64,000 nt of DNA from positions 20,221 to 84,220 of the forward strand of contig JBAZZC010000004.1 of assembly GCA_041658985.1 (NCBI GenBank), read 5' to 3'. The position numbers and the translations under genes were made by a program. Below the pieces are notes generated by a model. That model did not search any database and was not told where the DNA came from. It saw only the letters and a list, made by a program, of their open reading frames with translations. This DNA comes from Minisyncoccota bacterium (lineage in GTDB: Bacteria; Patescibacteriota; Minisyncoccia; Phycocordibacterales; DATDWN01). Below, in pieces: positions 11,752-63,502 of this stretch (its first letter is position 1; every line of letters starts with the position of its first letter).

Positions 11752-11884
11752 ATCCGCACACCAAATCTGTCATCGTTCTGGTTTATTGTACGGTTTTTGT
11801 GGTTATTTGAGGTTGGTAATAAAAACATAATTATAGATGAACATAACACAGAACAAAAACCAATGACAGAATTGGTGTGCGGAT
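11752..11884. mobile_element. family A miniature TIR element (ATCCGCACAC ends), between infB and the 11888 gene
   Basis: ATCCGCACACCAAATCTGTCAT at 11752 vs reverse complement of ATGACAGAATTGGTGTGCGGAT at 11863-11884 (22 bp, 1 mismatch). Confidence 0.55.
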
Positions 11885-11887
11885 GAA

Positions 11888-12376
11888 TTATTTTCCTAGA
11901 TTTTTTTTGGCTCCCCCAACTACCTCTTTTTCTTCGTCGGTTAATTCAAATGTACTTTCAAACTTTATAAGTGGCTTTGAAAAAACACTAACTCTGTCTC
12001 TGGAATATAGACTTGATAAAACAACCCCATCACCATTTTCACTTAAAAATGAGGTGGAAAAACTCTGGCTTCCTCCTTCACCTGTACCTTTGAATGGATT
12101 AAAGCGGATTGTTTCAACGGCCTGTATACTACGGTTTAAACGTTTTTCTAGGCCTATAAAATATTGGATTGATTCTCTTTGGAACTCATTCAACTTGTCT
12201 AAGTTCTCGTGAGCCGAAACGATTGAATCTTCAAGAGATTTTGCGTTTTTTCCTCGCAATAGTCTACCCATCTTTATTTCAAGCCACACAATCCACCCTA
12301 CAAGTATCACAATACAAGTTACTAAACCATATGTAATAAATTGAGGATCAGAAAGCATTTGATGATTATTACACAA
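11888..12376 (-). CDS. hypothetical membrane-anchored coiled-coil protein
   Basis: One TM helix and coiled-coil-like sequence. No recognised family. Confidence 0.35.
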   Translation of the reverse strand: MCNNHQMLSDPQFITYGLVTCIVILVGWIVWLEIKMGRLLRGKNAKSLEDSIVSAHENLDKLNEFQRESIQYFIGLEKRLNRSIQAVETIRFNPFKGTGEGGSQSFSTSFLSENGDGVVLSSLYSRDRVSVFSKPLIKFESTFELTDEEKEVVGGAKKNLGK

Positions 12377-12436
12377 ATTATTGTCTTTTGCAATGAAAAA
12401 TGTATAGTAGATTATGAAATTTCATAATAATAGGAG

Positions 12437-13639
12437 ATGAAAAGAAAAAAAGATAAAAGAAGAATATTTTTAGATTATGCCTCCATTACACCCATTGATA
12501 AAAAGGTTTTGGCAAAAATGGAAAGTATTCAAAAAATGACCTTTGCAAATCCATCTGCTTTGTATAGTGAGGCAATTGTTGCAAAAAATTTAATTAAAGA
12601 GGCTAGACAAAAAATAGTCACGATTATTCATGCTCAAAAAGATGAAATTATTTTTACAAGTGGGGGAACCGAGTCAAACAACCTGGCACTTCTTGGTATT
12701 TTTGAAAGTGTTCAAAGGTCTGACCTTAAGAATTCCAAAAGTCAGATCTTTTTGGGTAAACCCCACATTATTACGACAAAAATTGAACATCCGGCAGTTT
12801 TAGAGGTTTGTAAGGAAATTGAACGGCGAGAGGGAGAAGTTACTTATTTGCCGGTATCTTCTGATGGTCTTGTTTCTATAAAAAACATTCGAGAATCAAT
12901 CAAAAAGAACACAGTTCTCATAAGCATTGGATATGCAAATAACGAAATAGGCACAATACAACCAATTCATGATATGGGTAGGGTGATAAAAGACTACAGA
13001 CAAAAAAATAATACTAAGCTTCCGTATTTCCATACTGACGCTTGTCAGGCGGGGTTGTATTTGTCTCTTGATGTATTAAAACTTGGGGTTGATTTAATGA
13101 CTTTAGATGGAATTAAAATGTATGGTCCAAGAAGCTCGGGTATTTTATATGTAAAATCTGGTTTAGAGTTGTCGCCGATTATTTTTGGCGGTGGACAAGA
13201 AGGGGGACTGCGAAGCGGAACAGAAAATGTTGGAGTTTGTGTTGGACTGTCAACCACGCTTGAAATTGCAGAAAAAATTAAAGAAAAAGAATCCAAACGG
13301 CTGATGGCACTTCGTGATTATGCAATTAAAAATCTTTTAAAGATTTTTCCAAATTCTACACTAAACGGGTCAAGAGAATATCGTCTACCAAACAATATAA
13401 ATATCTGTTTCCCTGGTTTGGATGCAGAATTTGCGGTTATATCACTTGATGTTTTAGGAATTTCCGCCTCATACTCATCATCTTGTAGGACTCTAAAAGA
13501 AGACTCGTCTTCTTATGTTGTTGAAAATTTAGGTAAAAAAGATTGTAGTCAGTCGAGTCTTCGATTTACTCTCGGAAGAGAAAGCAAAAAAAGTGATATT
13601 GATACTTTAGTCACTGTCCTAAGAAAAATTGTGGTATAA
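12437..13639 (+). CDS. cysteine desulfurase family protein (class V aminotransferase, NifS/IscS-like)
   Basis: SD AGGAG 4 nt upstream of the start. FTSGGTESNNLAL, HTDACQAGL, and a Gly-rich PLP region. Confidence 0.8.
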   Translation: MKRKKDKRRIFLDYASITPIDKKVLAKMESIQKMTFANPSALYSEAIVAKNLIKEARQKIVTIIHAQKDEIIFTSGGTESNNLALLGIFESVQRSDLKNSKSQIFLGKPHIITTKIEHPAVLEVCKEIERREGEVTYLPVSSDGLVSIKNIRESIKKNTVLISIGYANNEIGTIQPIHDMGRVIKDYRQKNNTKLPYFHTDACQAGLYLSLDVLKLGVDLMTLDGIKMYGPRSSGILYVKSGLELSPIIFGGGQEGGLRSGTENVGVCVGLSTTLEIAEKIKEKESKRLMALRDYAIKNLLKIFPNSTLNGSREYRLPNNINICFPGLDAEFAVISLDVLGISASYSSSCRTLKEDSSSYVVENLGKKDCSQSSLRFTLGRESKKSDIDTLVTVLRKIVV

Positions 13640-13642
13640 TAT

Positions 13643-13777
13643 ATCCGCACACTAAATTTAGTATCGTTGCCTAGTGTTTTATCTAGATATTATTTATTAG
13701 TTATGTAATCGAGATAATATTTAGTGACAAATATTTAAAAGGCAACAAAAACACAATACTAAAATTAGTGTGTGGAT
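13643..13777. mobile_element. family A miniature TIR element, between the cysteine desulfurase gene and 13780
   Basis: ATCCGCACACTAAATTTAGTAT vs reverse complement of ATACTAAAATTAGTGTGTGGAT (22 bp, 2-3 mismatches). The right end GTGTGTGGATAAATG abuts the start codon of 13780. Confidence 0.55.
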
Positions 13778-13779
13778 AA

Positions 13780-14610
13780 ATGGAAGATTTAAATAAAAAT
13801 CAAATTATTTTATTGGTGCTTCTTATTAGTTTTGTCACATCTATAGCAACTGGTATTATGACCACCTCTCTTCTTCAGGAAGCGCCTCTTGAAGTAACTA
13901 GAAACATAAATCGTATTGTAGAGAAAACCATTGAAACGGTCACAATCCCGGGAGTTACTACGCCTAGTCAAAAAGAAATCACCACCGTTATTGTAAAAGA
14001 GGAGGACATGATAGTCAGTTCTATTGATAAAAATATAAAAAGTATTGTCCGTATAAATGAAAAGGATTCGGTTACTGGACTGGTTGGTTTTTATGGATTG
14101 GGTCTGGTTATAAATAAAGATGGAATTATTGCAGCAGACAAGAAGATAACAGTTGTTGGTAATACTTACACAGTAAAAATGAGTGACGGAAAAGAGTTTA
14201 GCCTGACACCCATTGGAATGGACAAACCGACCAACTTTATTTTATTTAAAGTCGTTTTACCTGAAAAAATCTCATACGTTTTTGTACCCACAATCTTTAG
14301 TGACAAAGAATTAAAGCTTGGACAAACGCTGACAAGCTTAGGGGGTGAATCAAATAACTCTGTATCGGTTGGCCGGGTTGTGTCTTTGGACACAAAAGAA
14401 TCTGGTACTGGAACGTCAACCATAAAATATATTACGAGCATTAATACCGACATTTCCGGAGGTAATCTTCTTTCTGGCAGTCCAATATTTAATCTTTCTG
14501 GTGACATTGTTGGTGTAAAACTTTCTTTTGATGCGTCAAAATCATTCACTCCCATCTCGGTTTTGAAGAAAGAATTAGGTATTCTCTTAGAAACTACCAA
14601 AACTCAATAA
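13780..14610 (+). CDS. membrane-anchored trypsin-like (S1C/HtrA-like) peptidase-domain protein, possibly degenerate
   Basis: N-terminal TM. TDISGGNLLSGSPIFNLSGDIVGV resembles the GNSGGPL...G.ViGi active-site region of S1C peptidases. Low confidence. Confidence 0.4.
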   Translation: MEDLNKNQIILLVLLISFVTSIATGIMTTSLLQEAPLEVTRNINRIVEKTIETVTIPGVTTPSQKEITTVIVKEEDMIVSSIDKNIKSIVRINEKDSVTGLVGFYGLGLVINKDGIIAADKKITVVGNTYTVKMSDGKEFSLTPIGMDKPTNFILFKVVLPEKISYVFVPTIFSDKELKLGQTLTSLGGESNNSVSVGRVVSLDTKESGTGTSTIKYITSINTDISGGNLLSGSPIFNLSGDIVGVKLSFDASKSFTPISVLKKELGILLETTKTQ

Positions 14611-14734: not shown

Positions 14735-17410
14735 ATGCCACCATTTGGTCATTTTACAACAAAAGCAAAAGAAGCTATCCGAAAAGCCCATGAGCTGGCT
14801 ATTGAACGTGGTCAAAATCACGTTAACTCCCTCCACCTTTTAACTGCTCTTATTTTACAAGAAGAGGGAATTGTCACTTCAATATTAGATAAGTTACAAA
14901 TTGATACAATTCTTTTGACGGACTCTCTTATAGAAGCCATAGAAGGTGCTGATGTCGGACAAACCATTTCTGCTTCATATCAAGTTTATCTTACACCAGA
15001 TTTAGCTTCTGTTATTGAAGCTTCCGTTAAACAAACCCCAGCTCTTCATGATGATTTCGTTTCAACCGAGCATCTTTTTCTAGCCTTAATTGAAGTTCCT
15101 GGTCCTGCCAGGGATTTACTCATAAAATTTAAAATAGAAAAAGATTCAGTTCTTCGTCTTATTGAAGAAATAAGAAATACAAAAACTGCTGATACGGAGA
15201 CACCAAAGAAATTTAAGTCACTTTCAAAATACACAAGAAATCTAACAAAACTTGCTGGGATGAATAAATTAGACCCAGTTATTGGAAGAGAAGATGAAAT
15301 TTCCCGTATCATCCAGATTCTTTCCCGTCGAACAAAAAATAATCCAATCTTAATAGGTGAAGCTGGAGTAGGAAAGACAGCTATAGCTGAAGGTTTGGCC
15401 ATTAGAATATCTATGGGAGAAGTACCGGAGTCTCTCAGAGATAAAGAATTGGTTTCTCTTGATTTAGGTCTTTTAGTGGCAGGAACAAAATATCGTGGGG
15501 AATTTGAAGAAAGGTTAAAAAATATTTTGAAAGAAATAGAAAAATCGGATGGCAAAATCATTTTGTTTGTTGATGAGATACATACAATTGTCGGGGCTGG
15601 TTCGGCCGAGGGGTCATTAGACGCATCAAATATGTTAAAACCAGCTTTAGCACGCGGGGAGTTACGAGCCATTGGAGCAACCACCCTTAAAGAATATCAA
15701 AAACATATTGAAAAAGACCCAGCTCTCTCAAGACGATTTCAACCAGTCTATGTTAATGAACCAGGTATAGAAGATGCTATTACTATTCTTCGAGGATTGA
15801 AGGAAAAATATGAACTTTATCACGGGGTTCGTATAACTGATGAGGCCATAGTCGCTGCTGTTAATCTTTCTAGCAGGTATATTACTGATAGGTTTTTACC
15901 AGATAAGGCTGTTGACCTTATCGATGAATCTGCTTCATATTTAAAAATTGCCTTAGAAAATAAACCAGTAGTGCTTCAGAATGCACATTCGAAAATTATA
16001 AAGCTTCAGATTGAACACGAAGCATTAAAAAAGGAGACAGACATGAAATCAAAGACCCGCTTAAAAGAAATAGAGAAAATTATTGCTGACTTAAAAGAAG
16101 AAACAAGCGAGATTGAATTAAAATGGAACAATGAAAAAGAAACAGTCAATGATATAAAGGCAATCAAAAAACAACTTGAAGAGCTTCGTCGTGAAGCAGA
16201 GATTGCAGAAGCCAAATCTGACCTCTCTTTAGCTGCAGAAATACGGTATGGCAAAATTCCAGCTCTGGAAAAAGATCTAGACAACAAATCAAAGAGATTA
16301 AAAAAACTTCAAAGTTCTCGAAGAATTCTGAAAGAAGAAATTACTGAAAATGATATCGCTACGATTGTGTCAAAGTGGACTGGTATTCCAGTGACAAGAA
16401 TGCTTGAAGAAGAAGCGGATAAATTAAATCGCATGGAAGACGTTTTACAAAAAACAATCGTAGGTCAAAAAGAGGCCGTTCAAAAAATATCCGACACAAT
16501 CAAAAGGAGTCGTGCTGGTATAGCTGACCCTCAGAGACCAATTGGCTCTTTTCTATTCTTGGGTCCAACTGGTGTAGGTAAAACTGAACTGACAAAATCT
16601 TTGGCTCAATTTATGTTTAATGATGAAAAAGCTCTGATTCGTATTGATATGTCTGAGTTTATGGAGAAACACAGTGTCTCAAAAATACTTGGTGCTCCTC
16701 CGGGATATGTTGGACATGAAGAAGGCGGAACAATAACTGAAATGGTACGTCATAGACCATATTCTGTCATATTATTTGATGAAATTGAGAAAGCTCATCC
16801 GGAAGTGTTTAATGTTTTGCTTCAGATTTTAGATAACGGGCGACTGACCGATGCTAAGGGTAGAGTGGTTAATTTTAGAAATACTGTGATTATTCTAACC
16901 TCAAATATTGGTTCGCAGTATATAGATAAAATGGAAAAAATTGGTTTTGCTTTTGAAAAAAGTGAAAAGGCAAGTTACGAGGAAGCTAAATCAAGAGTGA
17001 TGGATGCCTTGAAGGATCATTTTCGACCAGAGTTCCTTAATCGTTTGGATGACGTTATTGTTTTTGATATTTTAAGTCGTGACGCTATCGCTGAAATCGT
17101 AAAAATCCAAGTAGAAATTGTCACAGAAAGATTGGCTCAAAAAGAAATCAGACTAATACTTTCTCCAGCCGTATTGGAACATCTAGCAAAAGAAGGATAC
17201 AGCCCACAATATGGCGCTAGACCATTAAAGCGTCTAATACAGACAAAAATTTTAACACCAATAGCTTCTTTCATGGTTAGTAAAAAAATATCGAAAGGGG
17301 GTTCTATTTCTGTTGATATGAAGGGTACCGAGCTTGTCTTTAGTGTAAAAAAAGGTAAACATGATTCGTTTGTCTCACCGACCTTTGTTAATGATGGTAT
17401 CTTGGCATAG
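14735..17410 (+). CDS. clpB: ATP-dependent chaperone ClpB (two AAA+ modules with long middle coiled-coil)
   Basis: Clp_N repeats. Walker [16 protein letters not shown] and [15 protein letters not shown]. Long M-domain coiled coil around nt 15990-16330. Confidence 0.95.
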
Positions 17411-18991
17411 AATGATTTCTTGTGATAAAGTAATCTGGTTAATAGTATATGCGCCGGTCGGATAGCGGCTATTCCAGGGGACTGTAAATCCCCGGTCCAT
17501 AGGACATCGTTGGTTCGAGTCCAACCCGGCGCACCACGTAGGAAAAGTCAAAGAGTTTTGGTTCGCCTCGCTTCGCTCGGCGACTAATTTGTATTCAATT
17601 TTGGGGGTAAAAACGAATTCCCGATTTCGCAAAATATGGTTCGAGCCGATGTTTTTCAGAAATGTTGGCAATTCGGAAAGATTATTCTCTCCAACCAATT
17701 TCGCGGCTTGATTTAAGGACTTTACGAACTCACGAGCCGGTTCGAGCCAAGACAACCCTTTTTCCTCAAAGTCGGTTATTTTCTCTATTAAAGATATTTT
17801 CTGAGATAACAGACTTTGTTTTTTGGCGGCGTATTCCTCTGTGGATAAGGCGTCCGCTAAATAGATGTCTAACAATTTTTGGAGTTTTGCCTCAACCTGT
17901 GTTACTTGCTCTTTCAAAACGCTGATTTCACTTTGTGCGTCCTCTCTCGCTTTATCCTGTTCGCTATCCAACGCCGCCAAAACTTTCTCGGTGTCTTGGC
18001 TCGACAAAGAAACTTTTTGAAGATAAGAAGTGATTTGTTCGGTTAGTGCTTCTTCTCGGAGATAATGCTTTTCTTGGCAAGGGCCTTTCTTGTGAGTACA
18101 GCGATAATAGTTATGACCCTTTTGTCTTTCGGCAGTGATTGAACAATCGCACGAAGCGCATTTGAGAAGGCCAAGAAAAGCAAAATTATTTTTGTGAGAT
18201 TCCTGTACTTTGCCACGCTTGCTCATCACTTCTTGGCAAGTATCAAAAAGTTTCTTTGAAATTAACGGCTCGTGTTGTCCCTCAAAAATTTCCCCCTTCC
18301 ATTTCATTAGTCCAAGGTAAAAGACGTTTTGTAGATTTTTTTGAATGTTTGCGATAACAAGTGGTTTTCCGAGATTACCACGCAAATCGTGTTCCTTACA
18401 CCAATTTGCGAGAGAGTGAAGCGTAAATGCTCCGGTGGCGTACATTTCAAACAACCTCTTAACTTTCGGCGCTTTCTCGCTATCAATATCAATACCGCGA
18501 GTCTTTGGGTTATTGGTGTAGCCCACCGGAGCCCAGCCGGGCCAAACGCCGTTTCTGATTTTCTGTCGTAGTCCTCGCTTCACATTCTCTCGCAAATTAT
18601 CTACAAAATATTTTGATTGACCAAAAGCAATATTGAGCATGAATAATCCCTGTGGTGTAGGCTCAAACCAGAAGGTGGGAAATTTTAGAGAACGAATCAA
18701 ACCGCGATCTACAAAATGGATAATCTTTCCGCCGTCCACACTATTTCTTGCTAATCTATCGGGGTGCCAAGAAATAATCCCATCTGCTTTTCCTGATTCA
18801 AGAATTGCCAACATTTCTGCGAATTTAATTCGCCCGGGTTCTTTTGCGGTTTTGGCTTCCTGAAAGGAAGCGACAATTTCAAGTTTTTCTTTGGCGGCAT
18901 ACTCTTGCAACTCTACGAGTTGCGCTTCAATACTTAAAACCTGTCGGTCATCTTCTTCAGTAGATTTTCTTGCGTAAAGTATGTATTTCAT
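17375..18991 (-). CDS. large serine recombinase (resolvase/invertase catalytic domain + recombinase domain + zinc ribbon). The C-terminal ~95 codons of the ORF run through IR1 and the tRNA-Tyr antisense and may not be genuine.
   Basis: N-terminal [19 protein letters not shown] (serine recombinase catalytic Ser motif), a ...R...GR... region, and zinc-ribbon CASCDCS...YYRC. Start ATG at 18991. The 3' end of the ORF overlaps IR1-L (17531-17631) and the tRNA. Confidence 0.85.
17451..17536 (+). tRNA. tRNA-Tyr(GTA), type II (copy 1)
   Basis: Acceptor GCGCCGG/CCGGCGC, anticodon stem GGGGA with loop CTGTAAA, long variable arm, T-loop GGTTCGAGTCC, encoded CCA. Its last 6 nt begin IR1. Confidence 0.85.
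17531..17631. repeat. IR1-L: 101-bp perfect inverted repeat (partner 19035-19135), beginning inside the 3' end of tRNA-Tyr
   Basis: Compared base-by-base: 17531-17631 equals the reverse complement of 19035-19135 (101/101). Confidence 0.9.
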
Positions 18992-19007
18992 AAGTTTTAG
19001 AAATTAA

Positions 19008-19035
19008 GGATTAAAAAATTTTCTTCCCCCAAAAT
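19008..19035. repeat. IR3-L: 28-bp perfect inverted repeat (partner 19280-19307), located between the recombinase start codon and IR1-R
   Basis: GGATTAAAAAATTTTCTTCCCCCAAAAT vs reverse complement at 19280-19307. Confidence 0.85.
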
Positions 19036-19135
19036 GCGAAATCGGGAATTCGTTTTTACCCCCAAAATTGAATACAAATTAGTCGCCGAGCGAAGCGAGG
19101 CGAACCAAAACTCTTTGACTTTTCCTACGTGGTGC
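19035..19135. repeat. IR1-R: inverted partner of 17531-17631
   Basis: See IR1-L. Confidence 0.9.
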
Positions 19136-19227
19136 AGTATCCTTGAATTAGTCCGAACGCATTTCGCCGCCTGCGGCGGCGAGGAAGTCCCCCCGCAAAA
19201 ATTCGGAAAGGCGGCGGAGCCGCACCG
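19132..19227. repeat. IR2-L: 96-bp perfect inverted repeat (partner 20132-20227). Overlaps the end of IR1-R by 4 nt.
   Basis: 19132-19227 equals the reverse complement of 20132-20227. Confidence 0.9.
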
Positions 19228-19527
19228 ATCAAAACCGTAAAAGAACCCGGAGAAAAACATCGGCGCGAACCATATTTTAATTTTGGGGGAAGAAAATTTT
19301 TTAATCCATTCAGAACCCTCTAAAATGGCCCCAAATAAGGGCTTTTTTGATTGTTTCGATATGGCTTGACAGAAAGGTTTGGATATGCTATACTTAATGC
19401 AGTAAATTGAAGTAAGTTCTTTATCATTTTTGGTCAGCTTTCTTGCGACACAATAGCTTAGAAACCTTGTTTTTCTTAGTTGCTGTGTCGCAAGAATCCA
19501 ACAACCCACAACCCAAAGGAGACTGAC

Positions 19528-20004
19528 ATGATGACGACGCAACCGCGACTGACCAAGGGGCTGTTCGGGCACGAGTTTCGCTCTGCCAGCACCCTGTTCG
19601 GCATCCGGTGTGGACAGTGTCGCGGTCGCGACTTCGTTCACAACGGCGGCTGGTACAACAGGGACGGCGAGAAACTCGGCTGGGGCGATCTCGCACCGGC
19701 GGACTTCCTGAAGATCTCCAACGAGTTGGAGGATGGTGAGCTCTTCATCATTCTCTACGAGTCGGACTCTTTCTGGAACTTCGTCACCCGCCCGGGCATC
19801 ATCGGCAGCATGGCCGCCGTGAAGCCCGACGTGGAGGCGCCCGGCGTCGACTTCGTAGCGGAGAAATGCTGCTACATCGTCGCCAAGCACCGACTCTACT
19901 ACGTCGACCGGAACGGCTACTCGAAAGAGAAGACGTTCGATCGAGACGGGTTGCAGTTCACGGTGCTGACGCCCGAAGCCGCGAAGCAGCTCATCGCTTC
20001 GTAG
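19528..20004 (+). CDS. hypothetical GC-rich protein carried between the IR2 copies
   Basis: TTGACA-17-TATACT promoter at 19366-19394. 11-bp-stem hairpin in the leader at 19442-19494. SD AAGGAG 8 nt before ATGATG (MMTTQPRL...). No recognisable family. Confidence 0.45.
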   Translation: MMTTQPRLTKGLFGHEFRSASTLFGIRCGQCRGRDFVHNGGWYNRDGEKLGWGDLAPADFLKISNELEDGELFIILYESDSFWNFVTRPGIIGSMAAVKPDVEAPGVDFVAEKCCYIVAKHRLYYVDRNGYSKEKTFDRDGLQFTVLTPEAAKQLIAS

Positions 20005-20131
20005 CTCCGCCCGCCGCCAACCCAAACCAAGTTCGCCACCTCTTGATAAAAGGTGGCTTTCTTTTTGTCTGATTTTTTGATAAAATAAATTCATAATTGA
20101 ATGCCGCCAAAGAAAAACTTGAAATTGTCAG

Positions 20132-20227
20132 CGGTGCGGCTCCGCCGCCTTTCCGAATTTTTGCGGGGGGACTTCCTCGCCGCCGCAGGCGGCGAAATGC
20201 GTTCGGACTAATTCAAGGATACTGCAC
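20132..20227. repeat. IR2-R: inverted partner of 19132-19227. It is immediately preceded (20101-20129) by a 29-bp inverted copy of recombinase-gene codons 31-40 (18872-18900).
   Basis: Direct comparison; see findings. Confidence 0.9.
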
Positions 20228-21626: not shown

Positions 21627-21712
21627 GGGTAGGTGCCCGAGCGGTCAAAGGGGACTGTCTGTAAAACAGTTGGCCTAGGCCTACAGAGGTTCAAATCCTC
21701 TCCTACCCACCA
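21627..21712 (+). tRNA. tRNA-Tyr(GTA), type II (copy 2), 6 nt after the tyrS stop
   Basis: Acceptor GGGTAGG/CCTACCC, anticodon stem ACTGT with loop CTGTAAA, long variable arm GGCCTAGGCC, T-loop GGTTCAAATCC, encoded CCA. Confidence 0.85.
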
Positions 21713-41061: not shown

Positions 41062-41183
41062 TTTGAATTTCTAATTTTTAATTCCTAATTTCTAAATAAG
41101 CACCAATAAACAATGAATGAGTTGGGGATTGGGTTTTGGAATTTAATTAGTAATTAGAAATTAGGTCAATTAGAAATTTTTAT
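41062..41183. mobile_element. miniature inverted-repeat element, family B (AATTTCTAATT-type TIRs), no ORF
   Basis: Left arm GAATTTCTAATTTTTAATTCCTAATTTCTAAATAAG. Right arm AATTAGTAATTAGAAATTAGGTCAATTAGAAATTTTT (approximate reverse complement). Related copy at 42043-42495. Confidence 0.5.
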
Positions 41184-42042: not shown

Positions 42043-42495
42043 AATTTCTAATTACTAATTTCTAATTACTAAATAAATCCCAATGATCAAAAACCAAAAG
42101 TTTGATTTGGAAGAACGAAGTGCAAAATTTGGGGAGGATGTAATTAAATTTTGTAGAGACTTGCCGAAAGATGAAATAACAAGACCAATAATTAATCAAC
42201 TGGTAAAATGTAGTACGAGTGTTGGGGCTAATTATTGTGAAGCAGATGATGCTGAATCTAAGAAGGATTTTAAACACAAGATTGGTATTTGTAAGAAAGA
42301 AGCAAGAGAATCAAAACATTTTTTGAGAATGTCTGTAATTGCAGTACCCGAAGTTAAGGAAAGAGCAAAAATTTTGTGGGTTGAGGCAAAAGAGCTAAAT
42401 TTGATATTTAATGCTATATATAATAAGTGTTGACTTGGTAATTGGTGCTTGGTTATTGTTTAGAAATTAGGTCAATTAGTAATTAGAAATTTTTA
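42043..42495. mobile_element. family B TIR element carrying a four-helix-bundle (23S rRNA IVS protein family) gene
   Basis: Left arm GAATTTCTAATTACTAATTTCTAATTACTAAATAA. Right arm TAGAAATTAGGTCAATTAGTAATTAGAAATTTTTA (approximate reverse complement). Encloses ORF 42083..42433. Confidence 0.5.
42083..42433 (+). CDS. four-helix-bundle protein (TIGR02436 / 23S rRNA intervening-sequence protein family)
   Basis: KCSTSVGANYCEADDAESKKDFKHKIGICKKEARESKHFLRM matches the rSatSIpANIAEG...kdf...l.iA.GS..E family pattern. Confidence 0.7.
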   Translation: MIKNQKFDLEERSAKFGEDVIKFCRDLPKDEITRPIINQLVKCSTSVGANYCEADDAESKKDFKHKIGICKKEARESKHFLRMSVIAVPEVKERAKILWVEAKELNLIFNAIYNKC

Positions 42496-50640: not shown

Positions 50641-51028
50641 TATATATGTTATGGATAAACTGAGACCATCAAGAGAACTTAGAGAAAAAATACTTTTTTC
50701 AATTAAAAAAGAGGAAGTTTATCGTGCAAAAATGTATTTTTTTATGTCTATTACCATAGGACTTGCTTCTATTTTTGGTTTGTTTTTCTCGGTCAGATAT
50801 ATGGTTCAGGAATTTTACCAGTCTAGTTTTGGAAGTTTTATATCTATCATTTTCTCTGACCCTAATATGGCAATTTACTACTGGAAGGAATTATCCCTGT
50901 CTCTATTAGAAACATTACCAATATTGGGAATAACGGTCTCATTAATAGCAATGTATACTCTTCTGGTTTCTGTCCGAACATTAGTAAAAAACATAAGAGG
51001 AGGGTTAATTTTGTCTTTTAACAATTAA
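50615..51028 (+). CDS. putative membrane anti-sigma factor (by position)
   Basis: Small protein with TM segments directly after the ECF sigma gene. Inference from gene order. Confidence 0.35.
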   Translation: MHQNAPYFRIYVMDKLRPSRELREKILFSIKKEEVYRAKMYFFMSITIGLASIFGLFFSVRYMVQEFYQSSFGSFISIIFSDPNMAIYYWKELSLSLLETLPILGITVSLIAMYTLLVSVRTLVKNIRGGLILSFNN

Positions 51029-51033
51029 ATAAT

Positions 51034-51164
51034 ATGAATCCCGTTAGAAATCACCAGGTTTGTTTATGAGAATAATGAATTATCATGAAATACTTAATTA
51101 TTAACAAATATTATTAAATAACTACGGAAAGGCTTTAGCAAAAAGCTTTCCTATTTCTAACGGG
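51034..51164 (+). promoter_or_regulatory. conserved stem-forming 5' leader, copy 1 (arms ATGAATCCCGTTAGAAAT / ATTTCTAACGGG abutting the start codon)
   Basis: The 12-nt arms are perfectly complementary. The same arms occur at 55408-55514. A third copy at 58048-58153 carries a compensatory change. Confidence 0.55.
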
Positions 51165-51635
51165 ATGAATATAAAAAATTTTATACAATCGAGAGTCTTT
51201 CGGGGTATCCTAATCGGTCTTGTAATAGCAATTGTTGCTCTTGTTATCTTCCAAGCAGGTATTGCTGTGGGATATAGAAAAGCGACGTTTGGTCATCGTT
51301 TGGGTGATAATTTTGAGCGAAATTTTAAAGACCCAAGAGGGGGAAATTTTGGCTTTAGGGGTGTTCCAGGAGGAATGGATATGCCGAGCGGTTATGGGGC
51401 TACCGGAAAAATAGTAAGTATTGCATTGCCACTTATTGTTGTCGCTGGACCAGATAATCTTGAAAAGACGTTGGTAATAAATGAAGATACTGAAATTCGT
51501 GAATTTCGCAATAGTATAACAAAGGATAAACTCCAGGTCGGGAATTTTATTGTTGTTTTGGGTACTCCGAATGATAAAGGACAAATAGAGGCTAAGCTTA
51601 TTCGTTTGGCTCCGATGCCAAAAAATGATTTATAG
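51165..51635 (+). CDS. small membrane-anchored Gly-rich protein with C-terminal beta domain (paralog A)
   Basis: N-terminal TM, GGNFGFRGVPGG, C-terminal beta-rich domain. Paralogous architecture to 55515..55952. Confidence 0.45.
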   Translation: MNIKNFIQSRVFRGILIGLVIAIVALVIFQAGIAVGYRKATFGHRLGDNFERNFKDPRGGNFGFRGVPGGMDMPSGYGATGKIVSIALPLIVVAGPDNLEKTLVINEDTEIREFRNSITKDKLQVGNFIVVLGTPNDKGQIEAKLIRLAPMPKNDL

Positions 51636-58521: not shown

Positions 58522-59499
58522 CTATCTCTTAAAATGGGTTTTTATGTATTCCTCGGTTTCACTCATGGAAAATGGTTGAGTGGAATTACCAATACGAGCA
58601 AAAAACTCTTCTCTTTTGTCGCCATTTTTTAAGTATGCTGGTTTATGTCCATTCTGAACAGAGACAATACAAACATCTTTTTCATTTACATTATCAAAGT
58701 TTATTTTTATATATTTTGTAAACTGCAAACCAATCATTGTCTTTACAAGCATAGTCAAATGATTTTCAAAACCATCACGATTTTTCTTTGGTAATACCTT
58801 ATAATCGTTTTCTAGTCCGATTACTTCTCCATCGTCATTTACTCCAATGAGAAGTGTTCCACCATCCGCATTTAAGAAACCTACAACTGACTTTACTATG
58901 ACTTTCTCCAACTCTTTATTAACCTCGTTTTTTCTTGTATCAAAACGAAGGGTTTCCTTAAACTCTAACTTATATCCCTCATCTCGTTTTAACAGAGTTT
59001 GTAAATTTAAAGGTGAGGTATTTTTAGGAGAGTTTTGGGTTATTTGTTTTATTATTTCCGTATATTCTTCAAAATTAGGTATATCTTTCAATTTTGTAAT
59101 TTTACCATCTTGATGCTCAAGTATTATAGTGGCATGTTTTATTCTACGGGCAATCGGTGATTGATGTGTTTCCACAGATATAATGTCATTAAGGTTTATA
59201 TATTTTTTGCGTTGAAATAAAATACCTGATTTTCTAATAATCTCCTTTTCTCCAATTTCAAAATATGAAAAATACCAATCAAGAAAAAGAGTAACTAGAT
59301 ATGTCAATTGAAACAAAGAAGAAACAATTAAAATAAAAAGGTCATAGCGAACATAATGGTCTATACTCAATCCTCTGAAAAGCACCTCATAATTTGCTAG
59401 ATAAGAAATAGCAATGAGAAAAATAACAGCGACAATTTCCATTAGGAAAACCTCCTTCAAAAAAGCCATAGGTCCTTGTTTGATAATAACTCTGCCCAT
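58522..59499 (-). CDS. membrane protein with bPH_2 (bacterial PH-like) domain and C-terminal AlbA_2/Schlafen-like putative DNA-binding domain
   Basis: N-terminal TM helices + YdbT-like PH region. C-terminus KETLRFDTRKNEVNKELEKVIVKSVVGFLNADGGTLLIGVNDDGEVIGL matches the AlbA_2 pattern. Confidence 0.5.
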   Translation of the reverse strand: MGRVIIKQGPMAFLKEVFLMEIVAVIFLIAISYLANYEVLFRGLSIDHYVRYDLFILIVSSLFQLTYLVTLFLDWYFSYFEIGEKEIIRKSGILFQRKKYINLNDIISVETHQSPIARRIKHATIILEHQDGKITKLKDIPNFEEYTEIIKQITQNSPKNTSPLNLQTLLKRDEGYKLEFKETLRFDTRKNEVNKELEKVIVKSVVGFLNADGGTLLIGVNDDGEVIGLENDYKVLPKKNRDGFENHLTMLVKTMIGLQFTKYIKINFDNVNEKDVCIVSVQNGHKPAYLKNGDKREEFFARIGNSTQPFSMSETEEYIKTHFKR

Positions 59500-59502
59500 T
59501 TT

Positions 59503-59734
59503 ATCCGCACACTAACTCTCATTTTGGGTTAGTGTATTTTTTATTATTAATTTTAATCTACTTCTAACTCGACTCATATATTCTAACACTTTTTTCTTTC
59601 CTTATATATCTAACCCTTTTGTTATGTTTTATAACTTTCTAATCTTGGGGGATTGAACTTATGTCGCTTATTTTAACTTTAATTTTCTATTATGTGGGTA
59701 TAAAACATAACGAAATGAGAGTTAGTGTGCGGAT
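59503..59734. mobile_element. family A miniature TIR element (non-autonomous, ~230 bp)
   Basis: ATCCGCACACTAACTCTCATTT at 59503-59524. Reverse complement AAATGAGAGTTAGTGTGCGGAT at 59713-59734. No ORF inside. Confidence 0.6.
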
Positions 59735-60964: not shown

Positions 60965-61026
60965 TTTATATTGTTGACAAAAAGGCTGTAGCTGATAATC
61001 TAATTTTGGAGCGGGAAGGAGTTTAC

Positions 61027-61275
61027 ATGCCAAAAACAAGTATGAAGGACGACAAGCCTTTCCACGAGTCCATTGTGGATGCGATTGGAGAAGCATCAAG
61101 CACTGACCTTCACTGTCTCGGTCGTCTGATCAAGGCGACAGCCATCCCAAAGGGTCATGACCAGATTCTTACAGCGTGGGAGGGACATGCCAGGCCAATC
61201 CTGGGTTCTATGGACCTCGGGGTCCCGGAAGCGCTTCGTCTTAAGAAGCGACGAGCCGAACGTGGCGACGGCTAA
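61027..61275 (+). CDS. GC-rich small hypothetical protein (~82 aa)
   Basis: SD GGAAGGAG before ATG at 61027. Terminator hairpin at 61288-61325. Confidence 0.4.
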   Translation: MPKTSMKDDKPFHESIVDAIGEASSTDLHCLGRLIKATAIPKGHDQILTAWEGHARPILGSMDLGVPEALRLKKRRAERGDG

Positions 61276-61351
61276 AGGCCTGTGGGAAAGCCCGCGATAT
61301 CATCGCGCTCCCACGGGCTTTTTCACACTCAAAAACTTTATGTTATAATTC

Positions 61352-61653
61352 ATCCGCACACTAACTCTCATTTCGTTATGTTTTATGTATATGTGATCAA
61401 AAGTAAAAAGTTTGATAATCTATACATTGGTTCTACTAATAGTCTTAGAGAAAGACTCATAAAACATAACAAAGGACTAGTTAAATCAACAAAAAAGAAT
61501 AAACCATATGTGCTAATATATTATGAAGCGTATAAGATAGAATCAGATGCGCGAAGGAGGGAAAAAATGTTAAAATATAGAGGTCAAGCAAGAAATCAAT
61601 TAAAATTAAGAATAAAAGACACACTAGCGCAAAATGAGAGTTAGTGTGCGGAT
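61352..61653. mobile_element. family A TIR element (22-bp TIR ATCCGCACACTAACTCTCATTT) carrying a GIY-YIG nuclease gene
   Basis: Left TIR 61352-61373. Right TIR 61632-61653 is an exact reverse complement. The GIY-YIG stop codon lies inside the right TIR. Confidence 0.65.
61378..61644 (+). CDS. GIY-YIG nuclease family protein (URI domain, ~88 aa)
   Basis: MFYVYVIKSKKFDNLYIGSTNSLRERLIKHN gives the GIY...YIG motifs, plus a conserved Arg and Glu downstream. Confidence 0.8.
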   Translation: MFYVYVIKSKKFDNLYIGSTNSLRERLIKHNKGLVKSTKKNKPYVLIYYEAYKIESDARRREKMLKYRGQARNQLKLRIKDTLAQNES

Positions 61654-61655
61654 AA

Positions 61656-62689
61656 ATGTGGATAAAGATATATTACAAAAATATTTTTTTATTGGATTGT
61701 TGTTTTTAGTATCTGTTCTCATATTTTTTATTTTTCTACCTTTTATAGAAGTAATAATTTTGTCAGCTATTTTTGCTGTTATTTTAAGTCCATTACATAA
61801 AAGGCTCACAAGGTTACTTGCTGGTAGAAGCGGAATCTCGGCCTTTGTTGTAATTTTACTCTTTGCCGTTATTATAATTGTTCCAGTATTTTTATTAACC
61901 GTTCAAATACTTGATGAATCAAAAAATTTGTATATACAACTAACCAGCCAAACAGAATTAAATTATGCGCATCAGATAACCTACGTAATAGAAAAACCGA
62001 TTCAAAGATTTTATCCAGGATTTTCGTTTGATATTGGAGCGGTTATTGGGGTTGGTACGGATTTAATTATAAGTCACTTAAGTTCTATTGTTTCCAGTGT
62101 GTTTAATATAGTTACAGGTATTATCCTTATGTTCATTTCGCTTTATTTCTTTTTACGAGACGGCTCAAAGTTCAAGAAAGTTCTTGTTGTTCTAAGTCCG
62201 ATGAATAATGAATATGATGAACGTATATTTAGTAAAATCAAACAAACTGTCCTCTCAACCGTAAAGGGTGTCTTATTTATTGCTATTATTCAAGGTCTTC
62301 TTGCTGGTATTGGTATGAAAATTTTTGGTGTTCCAAATGCCACTTTGTGGGGAAGTGTTTCAGCCGTTGCTTCTCTTGTGCCAGGTCTTGGGACGGCTAT
62401 CATTTTTATTCCAGCCGTATCATATATGTTTATCATCGGTAACGTTCCCTTTGCAATCGGACTATTGCTTTGGGGTATCTTGATTGTCGGTCTGGTAGAT
62501 AATTTTCTTGGGCCATATTTATATTCTCGCGGAAGTGAAATTCATCAATTAATTATGCTTTTTGCCGTACTTGGTGGCATTGGTCTTTTTGGTCCGGTAG
62601 GATTTATTTTTGGTCCGATTATTATTGCTCTGTTTTTTACTCTAATTGAAATATATCAAACTCTTATTTTGAAGAAGAATTTAGAATAA
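61656..62689 (+). CDS. AI-2E family transporter (PerM/UPF0118-like)
   Basis: 8-TM profile with GLVDNFLGPYLYSRGSEIHQLIMLFAVLGGIGLFGPVGFIFGPII, typical of the family. Start chosen at the ATG at 61656 just after the TIR. Confidence 0.7.
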
Positions 62690-62695
62690 AAAGAC

Positions 62696-62716
62696 AGGAG
62701 GGCCCTAAGGCCCCCC
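62696..62716 (-). terminator. rho-independent terminator (minus strand)
   Basis: Minus strand reads GGGGGCCTTAGGGCCC then TCCTGTCTTTTTA. Confidence 0.5.
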
Positions 62717-62734
62717 GTGAAGAAGTTGCGTGGG

Positions 62735-62839
62735 TCAGAACCTGACCCGTCCGTCCCACGTAAGTGGGCGGTTGTGCCGAACGACAGCGGCGACGGTAAT
62801 TCCGAGAATGATAGCACCGAAGAACCAGAATCGCTTCAC
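62735..62839 (-). CDS. tiny hydrophobic peptide (34 aa), GC-rich. Not in the ORF track.
   Basis: SD GAGAGGAGAAG before a GTG start. Single TM-like peptide VKRFWFFGAIILGITVAAVV... Confidence 0.25.
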   Translation of the reverse strand: MKRFWFFGAIILGITVAAVVRHNRPLTWDGRVRF

Positions 62840-63154
62840 GGCTTCTCCTCTCTCTGGTCAACCCGCACGGCTGACACAGTCTATTGTTAGTAAAACACAC
62901 ACAAGATAAATCTGTCAAAAAAAATGGGGATTAATCCGAACACCAAATTTGGCATCGTTGCATCGTGTTTTAATATGTGTAAGTTGTGTTGCTATGTGAT
63001 AGGACATGAGGTTATATAAAAATGTTTAACAAGCAACAAAAACACAATGCCAAAATTGGTGTGCGGATAAACGACGAACCGGCGGACTTGCGTCTGCCGG
63101 TGTGAAGGGGATTAACTCCCTTCATGTTTCTAGCTCGACATGTGCCGAGCCGTA

Positions 63155-63361
63155 CTAAGGGAACTTGAAGTCTGACTCGTCCGCCCACTTTCGGGTGGTG
63201 GGTGGAGTCTCGACCGCCGGCGGGTGTTCCTTCTGATATCTGGTCGCCTCGTTGATGAAGTGGCGAACAGCCACAATCCATCCGAGTGCGACCAGAATCA
63301 TAAACACGAAACCGATGACTTGGTTCCACGGAATCTCGTGAACAAATCTAATTGCGAGCAT
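63155..63361 (-). CDS. GC-rich small membrane protein (~68 aa)
   Basis: SD GAGGAAGG 7 nt before the ATG at 63361 (MLAIRFVHEIPW...). One TM helix. The ORF-track entry extends further upstream. Confidence 0.4.
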   Translation of the reverse strand: MLAIRFVHEIPWNQVIGFVFMILVALGWIVAVRHFINEATRYQKEHPPAVETPPTTRKWADESDFKFP

Positions 63362-63423
63362 GGGCACCTTCCTCTCTTCAGTAAGTAAAACACAACACGA
63401 TTTTATTTGCAAAATTTTATACG

Positions 63424-63454
63424 AAAAAGACCGGCAGGTTTTGAGGCCTGCCGG
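63424..63454 (-). terminator. rho-independent terminator (minus strand)
   Basis: Minus strand reads CCGGCAGGCCTCAAAACCTGCCGG + TCTTTTTCG. Confidence 0.6.
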
Positions 63455-63502
63455 CCGGGAGGATGACCCTCCCTACCAGATTACAGTCTGGTCACTGGTA
63501 CG

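Follow-up and report, generated by a model that had tools for sequence, protein, structure and literature searches.

Small palindromic repeats are common in bacteria, and the enzyme that moves them is mostly not known. Among the described systems, REPIN–RAYT systems, which are built on repetitive extragenic palindromic (REP) sequences and REP-associated tyrosine transposases (RAYTs), are the nearest to the case presented here: they comprise short non-coding intergenic hairpin repeats in many copies, together with a nuclease or transposase gene of their own that such repeats flank, and recognition of a single-stranded hairpin is presumed (described in part in PMC2817692 and PMC3733652). Here we describe a family of inverted-repeat elements in a 64,000-nt stretch of contig JBAZZC010000004.1 from a Minisyncoccota bacterium (hereafter the window), which resemble REPs and REPINs in all of these respects and carry a candidate enzyme physically inside the element. 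The full-length form is about 300 bp long and consists of two arms of 22–25 bp around a single gene for an 88-aa GIY-YIG protein, and the copies of 133–232 bp are its non-coding derivatives. Full-text searching of the literature found no bacterial GIY-YIG gene inside inverted repeats, or linked to REP-like repeats or to miniature inverted-repeat transposable elements (MITEs). The nearest paper names GIY-YIG genes among those horizontally transferred from Patescibacteria (PMC12455944).

The end motif of the elements, ATCCGCACAC/GTGTGCGGAT, occurs 11 times in the window with at most one mismatch, against an expectation of 1.67 ± 1.27, and none of 100 dinucleotide-preserving shuffles of the window reached that number. 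All but one of these matches form five convergent pairs, at 11752–11884, 13643–13777, 59503–59734, 61352–61653 and 62934–63068, which we call c1 to c5. An earlier note on this DNA had listed the first four pairs, with coordinates that are all correct, and had taken the match at 63059–63068 for a solo right end; its partner lies at 62934–62943 (ATCCGAACAC, one mismatch), so that c5 is a fifth full copy of 135 bp. Three copies (c1, c2 and c5) are about 135 bp long and non-coding, while c3 and c4 are longer. The 302-bp c4 is full-length, and the description of 61352–61653 as a non-coding miniature has to be given up, because it holds a stand-alone open reading frame (ORF) of 88 aa on the plus strand (61379–61644; MFYVYV...AQNES, then the stop) that matches the GIY-YIG family (Pfam PF01541, E = 3.7e-14). 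This ORF starts 5 nt past the left arm, and its last four codons and stop lie inside the right arm. Read on the opposite strand, the 232-bp c3 aligns with c4 at 80.5% identity over 226 columns with about 70 nt of internal deletions, and it retains relics of the ORF (MFY..., IKHNK and ...LKLIIKNTLTQNES before the stop). Since it aligns with c4 over the full length and keeps these relics, c3 is a decayed full-length element with a GIY-YIG pseudogene. In our reading, the inner segments of the 135-bp copies (CGTTGC...GTGTTTT; AAAAACAC) may likewise recall the first codons and the last 30 nt of the ORF.

Contigs of related strains, with flanks 86–96% identical to those in the window, lack the element at four of the five sites (c1, c3, c4 and c5). 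The c1 site reads AATAAT/TTTACATGGACTTAATTTATT/ACCACAATG when empty (L102 and L103) and AATAAT/TC-element-AA/ACCACAATG when filled, and the c3 site TGTTAAAAT/AGACCT/ATGGGC when empty (L106 and L107) and TGTTAAAAT/TC-element-AAA/ATGGGC when filled. At the site of the ORF-bearing c4, TGTTATAAT/TTATTTAT/TGTGGA in L105 corresponds to TGTTATAAT/TC-element-AAA/TGTGGA in the window; at the c5 site, GTGGAT/AGAT/GACGAACC in the same strain corresponds to GGGGAT/TA-element-AAAC/GACGAACC. The short c1 spacer of the empty form is kept in six more distant genomes, and the empty state is therefore ancestral at c1. In the four filled/empty comparisons the insertion replaces 4–21 bp of target and no target-site duplication is seen; nor was a consistent one found at any border or alternative boundary of the copies. 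A possible further empty site, in L020 and L035, is too divergent for its junctions to be placed. The elements are thus strain-polymorphic insertions, and they are mobile. The earlier note had claimed mobile units and proposed the comparison of empty and filled sites; the polymorphism bears the claim out, as does the presence of multiple copies in many Patescibacteria, and an ordinary promoter motif without paired partners is excluded as well. Its designation of the units as MITEs fits only in part: they are short, multi-copy and bounded by terminal inverted repeats, but they make no target duplication and their full-length partner carries no known transposase.

The c2 site is occupied in strain L104 by an unrelated palindromic element (about 415–552) with arms ATCCCGTTAGAAAT. 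A member of this second family is also present in the window at 51038–51166, exactly between a TGA stop codon (51026–51028) and an ATG at 51165.

We scanned 185,579 GTDB species genomes for exact head pairs of the form ATCCGCACAC-N(100–130)-GTGTGCGGAT and obtained 83 matches at 78 loci. In 71 of the 83, at least 9 of the next 12 positions are complementary, while the 8 matches in high-GC genomes are plain chance. True copies occur in metagenome-assembled genomes (MAGs) labelled Paceibacterota, Zambryskibacteria, Taylorbacteria, Moraniibacteriota, 'Saccharibacteria' and others, with at least 22 copies within one Paceibacterota MAG, and the window itself belongs to a Zambryskibacteria-like genome of the Paceibacterota; outside the window as within it, the non-coding units are typically 133–139 bp long. 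The same arms enclose the same ORF in other Patescibacteria (L050 and L079; frameshifted in L063), the right arm of these ORF-bearing units again encodes the ...AQNES end and stop, and one ORF-bearing element is found at two or more different loci within one population. The GIY-YIG ORF is the only gene that any arm pair encloses in the roughly 600 kb of sequence flanking about 70 copies. In metagenomes, 557 of 600 matched stretches were confirmed to contain relatives of the protein, and the best 80 metagenomic loci yielded 52 intact ORFs that were non-redundant and had enough flank. Of these 52, 37 stand between inverted arms with 13 or more matched nucleotides, in units of 288–350 bp; the stop codon of 34 of the 37 falls within the right end or at most 25 nt from it. 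Across many lineages, then, the putative nuclease gene is bracketed by arms. The heads of the arms are lineage-specific (ATCCGCACAC, ACCCGCACAC, (A)CCCCCACAC, ATCCACACAC, CCCAGCAC and ACCCTGCAC). A CCCC(C)ACAC head marks both the upstream arm of the ORF and a neighbouring miniature element in a Cloacimonetes MAG, a case in which the head sequence apparently changes jointly in ORF-bearing and miniature copies.

Two further observations concern the distribution and assembly of the family. The ATCCGCACAC head with long complementary arms also occurs in MAGs labelled Babeliaceae (L006), Bdellovibrionales/Moraniibacteriota (L042 and L059) and Alphaproteobacteria (L078), and the copies under the Babeliaceae, Bdellovibrionales and Alphaproteobacteria labels could be due to horizontal spread or to mis-binning. 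In contig L083, the left flank of a CorA locus is joined to the right flank of a DUF1003 locus through the GIY-YIG element, as comparison with L079 and L050 reveals; the join looks chimeric and reflects either a recombination event involving two copies or a repeat at which the assembly collapsed. Such repeats can connect unrelated loci in metagenome assembly, and L083 is an apparent case.

The 88-aa protein matches Pfam PF01541 with 53.2 bits against a cut-off of 22.6 bits, and the exact protein is annotated as 'GIY-YIG nuclease family protein' in a Paceibacterota MAG. We detected 596 homologues, mostly of exactly 88 aa. The GIY-YIG catalytic residues Y3, Y5, Y16, G18, R26, N31 and E62 are invariant. 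Compared with PDB sequences, the family profile retrieved the UPF0213 proteins BH0048 (1zg2, 5.8e-9) and EF2693 (1ywl, 1.9e-6) and then SLX1 (3e-3), whereas the intron-endonuclease model TIGR01453 scored 19.3 bits, far under its cut-off of 56. The AlphaFold (AF2) model, with a mean confidence score (pLDDT) of 93, has a GIY-YIG core of topology E-E-H-E-H followed by one long helix. A Foldseek search of the PDB with this model placed BH0048, Slx1 chains and EF2693 at ranks 1–10, with I-TevI and UvrC lower; for BH0048 and the Slx1 nuclease domain the TM-score was about 0.6, the root mean square deviation 2.3 Å and the identity 29–30%. By profile and by predicted fold, the candidate nuclease most resembles the UPF0213 proteins and SLX1. 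UPF0213 proteins have no assigned function to our knowledge, and we know of none flanked by repeats. SLX1 acts on branched DNA as a structure-specific endonuclease, and PDB entries 6sei and 7cq4 indicate by their titles that it cuts branched and hairpin-like DNA.

The insertion site was characterized from the flanks of 83 non-redundant copies, 73 of which have AAA at exactly one end and could be oriented by it. The oriented flanks read A(48) A(58) T(71) W M/ATCC...GGAT/AAA, the counts being out of 73. In 22 of the 73 copies a TAnnnT hexamer at −8 to −3 ends in this AAT, 14 of these 22 having a TG extension as well, and TAA abuts the element in 17 of 73, where it proved to be the stop codon of the upstream gene whenever checked. 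An ATG lies within 2–13 nt on the AAA side in 47 of the 73 copies, compared with 11 on the opposite side. The site has the polarity ...AAT-NN/ATCC...GGAT/AAA-(0–10 nt)-ATG. Insertion is polar and falls in the interval that runs from a promoter −10 box, or from the stop codon of a gene upstream, to the following start codon, with the body in either orientation (34:35 relative to the flank polarity). Element-to-element junctions with a spacer of 1–3 nt (GGAT-AC-ATCC and similar) are frequent, and the c5 site also follows GGAT, so that the rule for the left junction would be two nucleotides after RAT. Inheritance of the flanks from the donor copy was considered and rejected, because the left dinucleotide varies (TC, TA, AA, AC and AT) inside one genome and subfamily. 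As to microhomology-guided or homologous replacement, the left junctions follow AAT or GAT and the right ones share nothing (c1 keeps ACCACA before the ATG).

The idea of the earlier note that the elements may donate promoter signals did not survive this analysis, since the −10 box, (TGn)TAnAAT, is external to the element, 2 nt beyond the end that faces away from the start codon, and belongs to the empty alleles too. The best promoter-like site between 59.3 and 63.3 kb (TTCACA-16-TATAAT with TG) ends 2 nt before c4, and its box is there in the empty allele. Judging by the normal spacing from the −10 box, transcription would start around G5 of ATCCGCAC and read through the hairpin; what the element itself contributes at the site is a long hairpin leader and two or three A residues before the start codon. 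ORF-bearing copies depart from the free orientation of the bodies: in the four Paceibacterota copies c3, c4, L050 and L079 and in many metagenomic ones, the ORF is directed toward the AAA side and therefore lies downstream of the external promoter. TGnTAnAAT is also found 6–9 nt before the ATG of several window genes (48467, 50006, 58290 and 59780 on the plus strand, 32427 on the minus strand), which suggests that this organism often makes leaderless or near-leaderless mRNAs. The elements occupy exactly the gap between TGnTAnAAT and ATG.

The arms of the window copies are 22–25 nt long and 92–96% complementary, with the outer 10 bp (ATCCGCACAC) conserved and the inner half variable. As the earlier note had noticed, the inner halves co-vary, differing among copies and matching inside each copy; the right-end block of about 40 bp that it described is indeed common to c2 and c5 and is present loosely in c1. 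Folded as single strands, the 135-bp copies reach −45 to −54 kcal/mol on the plus strand (z −5.4 to −9.0 against shuffles), and their minus strands give z values of −5.8 to −6.9. Covariation was analysed in 20 aligned copies over a 22-bp outer stem (S1) and a 5-bp helix (S2), 540 cells in all. The results showed that 98% of the S1 and S2 cells pair, that compensatory changes occur at 8 of the 22 S1 pairs (34 cells), and that none of 500 shuffles reaches the observed covariation, with G-U pairs in just 3 of the 540 cells. In c2, S1 pairs 13643–13664 with 13756–13777, S2 pairs GTTGCC (13666–13671) with GGCAAC (13741–13746), and a third helix, S3, pairs GTGTTTT (13674–13680) with AAAACAC (13748–13754).

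The two inner modules stand in swapped order: from the left arm inward the elements read S1-S2-(2–5 nt)-S3, and the complement of the right arm reads S1-S3-(0–3 nt)-S2. We scored S2 and S3 by script, as the MAFFT alignment had two subfamilies out of register at S3; across 77 elements, exact module matches of at least 5 nt were present in 80% for S2 and 94% for S3, against 37% and 46% for cross-paired control arms. The co-varying versions include GTTGC, GTCCTG, GTCTTGCT and GTTAC for S2, and GTGTTTTT, GTCTC, GCTTTTT and TATTTTG for S3. A pseudoknot with S2 and S3 formed simultaneously was rejected because the linkers of 0–3 nt are too short for it, and the two are presumably alternative helices. 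Owing to the swap, the top strand (via S2) and the bottom strand (via S3) can adopt an identical shape, predicted to be a 22-bp stem, a 1 × 9 asymmetric internal loop with the 9 nt on the 3' side, and a helix of 5–8 bp. The near-absence of G-U fits folding of both strands, because a G-U pair on one strand is an A-C mismatch on the other, and so do the balanced body orientation and the absence of in-situ inversion in a small sample of orthologous pairs. These alignments indicate that the constraint on the arms acts on both strands. A known RNA family was sought and rejected: Rfam scans at gathering and E-value thresholds gave just tRNAs above threshold in the window, and the only matches of the elements themselves were sub-threshold hairpins of plant microRNAs (miRNAs).

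We favour, as a probable explanation, a transposon in the form of a hairpin: a structure-specific GIY-YIG nuclease would mobilise it and would move its miniature derivatives in trans. The part played by the enzyme, and the route it would take, we infer. Each DNA strand would fold into the same bulged hairpin, or the duplex would extrude a cruciform, and the nuclease, as an SLX1-like structure-specific enzyme, would cut the base of the hairpin beside GGAT. The released or copied hairpin would then be joined by host repair or ligation 3' of a RAT motif, which may be that of a −10 box (TAnAAT), of a stop-codon context or of the GGAT end of another element. As the hairpin of either strand would be movable, body orientation would be random, and non-coding copies would be moved in trans. 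After insertion the host promoter would read into the element, and the downstream mRNA would gain a 5' hairpin leader, which would be tolerated.

More tentatively, and with some doubt, we suggest that the elements might form a new class of prokaryotic transposon whose sole protein is an SLX1-like GIY-YIG nuclease of about 85 aa that cuts a bulged hairpin or cruciform at its base. If so, mobilisation would follow a chemistry other than the known DDE, HUH, serine, tyrosine and Cas1 types, and insertion would be aimed by preference at the short run of melted or exposed nucleotides that separates the −10 box of a leaderless gene from its start codon.

Several points weigh against these proposals. 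GIY-YIG enzymes hydrolyse DNA, and we know of none that carries out strand transfer; the joining step therefore needs a further partner. The protein is a catalytic domain alone plus a long helix, without a DNA-binding module. The 135-bp copies and the ORF-bearing copies have different inner arm halves, so that mobilisation in trans would have to depend on shape and on the outer 10 bp. At the polar flanks, a variable dinucleotide toward the promoter and AA(A) toward the start codon arrive with the element whatever the orientation of its body. A crude search saw no arms around 15 of the 52 homologous ORFs. The flanks of filled and empty sites differ by 4–14%, which makes insertion followed by later trimming possible, and all the sequences are metagenome assemblies, in which repeats can mis-assemble. 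The model leaves unexplained both the polar flanks and integration by a hydrolytic nuclease.

Some of these points would also suit a MITE family of the ordinary kind, whose movement would be due to a conventional (DDE or HUH) transposase that is encoded at another place and was not seen, with the GIY-YIG gene as a passenger or a homing-endonuclease-like parasite of one sub-lineage. GIY-YIG enzymes are not known as transposases, the 135-bp and the ORF-bearing copies do not share their inner arm halves, the 15 homologous ORFs lack detectable arms, and a transposase could have been missed because Patescibacteria MAGs are incomplete. We nevertheless consider such a family unlikely, because none of the four filled/empty comparisons has a target-site duplication and the arms around some 70 copies enclose no other gene in the roughly 600 kb of flanks. 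In addition, the ORF fills its unit from 5 nt past one arm into the other instead of sitting in a loop, head variants co-vary between ORF-bearing and miniature copies, and ORF-bearing units keep their own arm type across genomes, which would be unexpected for homing into resident miniatures.

The stability of the folds (z −5.4 to −9.0), the start codon 2–13 nt downstream in 47 of 73 copies, and the −10 box 2 nt upstream in 22 of 73, from which transcription should start in the first bases of the element, could instead speak for a structured RNA module, such as a 5' leader, a processing or stabiliser hairpin or a small RNA, that is kept for regulation and spread by duplication, its position at start codons reflecting function. 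However, the body lies in either orientation to transcription, G-U pairs are almost absent from the stems, the elements precede unrelated genes and also stand behind stop codons inside operons, they come and go between close strains without change in the gene, one form encodes a nuclease, and no Rfam family matches them beyond the sub-threshold plant miRNA hairpins; a regulatory RNA is thus improbable. We give even less weight to an inverton, in which the inverted repeats would be recombination sites and the body of about 90 bp would flip to control the downstream gene, and regard it as very improbable. It would account for inverted repeats around a short segment and for the equal frequency of both body orientations relative to the flanking gene, and the window does contain a serine recombinase gene (17375–18991). 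That recombinase, however, is of the large integrase type and lies beside tRNA-Tyr, the sequence of the body offers no promoter-like hexamer at a useful distance from the start codon, and the orthologous copies compared, a small sample of mostly identical contigs, all have the same orientation. Dozens of copies moreover stand ahead of housekeeping genes such as infB, and it is the presence or absence of the whole element that is polymorphic.

The surroundings of the five copies are as follows. The 133-bp c1 has minus-strand polarity, (AATAAT)-TC-ATCC...GGAT-AA-ACCACA-ATG(infB): the stop codon of a DUF4446 gene (11888–11890) adjoins it on one side and the infB start codon (11743–11741) follows on the other, both genes being on the minus strand. 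The 135-bp c2 (plus strand) is followed by AA and the ATG of a trypsin-like protease gene at 13780; upstream of it, TGGTATAAT at 13632–13640 overlaps the stop codon of a cysteine desulfurase gene. Two divergent genes flank c3, which reads TGTTAAAAT (59745–59737)-TC-element-AAA-ATG (59499) on the minus strand. The promoter TTCACA-16-TGTTATAAT, ending at 61349 on the plus strand, precedes c4 (plus strand), which is followed by AAAT and the GTG of an AI-2E transporter gene at 61658. The 135-bp c5 (plus strand) lies downstream of the AI-2E transporter gene and is followed by a GC-rich stretch without an Rfam match. The earlier note had reported four start codons abutting element ends, of which those of infB and the protease stood. 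The supposed ORF at 11877 is an antisense shadow of the DUF4446 gene (11888–12376, minus strand; Pfam), and the ATG at 61656 is out of frame for AI-2E, whose start is the GTG at 61658 (the 343-aa NCBI model) or the ATG at 61634. The ATG at 59499, which the left end of c3 abuts on the minus strand, joins the list. The AI-2E gene also illustrates an annotation problem, as gene callers extend ORFs into the arms, for example to the ATG at 61634.

Other features of the window are recorded here. The serine recombinase gene (minus strand) lies amid perfect inverted repeats of 101–103 nt (17531–17631/19035–19135 and 19132–19234/20125–20227), with two tRNA-Tyr genes nearby (region 17375–20227 and 21627–21712); the region looks like an integrated element or a rearranged region. 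An ORF of the 23S-rRNA-intervening-sequence protein family (42083–42433) is bracketed by inverted repeats of 16–18 bp (AATTTCTAATTACTAATT) at 42043–42491 (also 41079–41164) and is another small gene within inverted repeats between host genes. GC-rich stretches at 61006–61340, 62690–62930 and 63072–63500 flank the AI-2E gene and are conserved in L105; they contain hairpins and weak ORFs, match neither Pfam nor Rfam, and may represent RNAs or small proteins that have escaped annotation. At 2837–2888, an intergenic gap contains a perfect palindrome (GCTGTCAAGTCGCGTTCTTGACAT) whose 24-nt arms enclose a 4-nt loop.

The candidate enzyme is only 88 aa long and would be easy to synthesize and test. 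If it is the mobilising enzyme, a UPF0213-like clade would gain its first function, and transposition a new catalytic type. Patescibacteria, with their streamlined genomes, seem to withstand dozens of insertions that fall precisely between a promoter and the start codon, which bears on leaderless gene expression and on genome evolution in this large uncultured group.

With classical MITEs such as the Correia elements of Neisseria and the enterobacterial ERIC/IRU elements, the present family shares a length of 100–300 bp, terminal inverted repeats, an intergenic and multi-copy distribution, variation in presence among strains, and co-transcription with neighbours as long hairpins, which here is predicted. 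Correia elements duplicate TA, whereas here target nucleotides are replaced without duplication; the inner arm halves co-vary per copy, and the full-length partner encodes a GIY-YIG protein and not a DDE transposase. IS200/IS605 elements are likewise very small, make no target duplication, insert with polarity beside a short motif and are recognised as hairpin DNA, as is proposed here, but they have subterminal hairpins, an HUH/Y1 TnpA and a single orientation relative to the target motif, in contrast to the terminal inverted repeats and both orientations found here; a Pfam scan of the window found no HUH protein. The likeness to attC sites lies in an imperfect palindrome (57–141 bp) between stop and start codons, in which only the outer ends are conserved and the inner halves co-vary, and, as predicted for the present elements, in activity as a folded single strand with asymmetric bulges. 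The core here is ATCCGCACAC...GTGTGCGGAT and not RYYYAAC/GTTRRRY, the neighbours are housekeeping genes and not a cassette array, and no integron integrase turned up nearby, although no search was aimed at one. Furthermore, attC sites are strand-specific, while here both strands can form the same predicted structure.

GIY-YIG homing endonucleases (I-TevI, and Seg and Mob of T4-like phages) have the same catalytic domain and are selfish genes between host genes, with filled and empty alleles, no target duplication, and flanking nucleotides that can be replaced as in break repair. The protein described here differs from them in being 88 aa long without a DNA-binding domain, and its gene in having long inverted repeats and miniature derivatives; it also occupies dozens of non-homologous sites per genome, a spread that homing by flanking homology cannot yield. 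SLX1 and the UPF0213 proteins BH0048 and EF2693 are closest to it in sequence and fold, although SLX1, a repair enzyme of eukaryotes, also has a RING domain and partners with SLX4. Compared with REPs, which are 20–40 bp long and have GTAG or CGTC heads, the units here measure 133–139 bp, with arms of 22–25 bp and heads of the form ATCC/ACCC...CACAC. The enzyme is a GIY-YIG nuclease and not an HUH/Y1 (IS200-like) protein, and its gene lies inside a single element, whereas the RAYT gene lies between REPs. The family works most like a REPIN–RAYT system, yet departs from it in the features by which such systems are defined.

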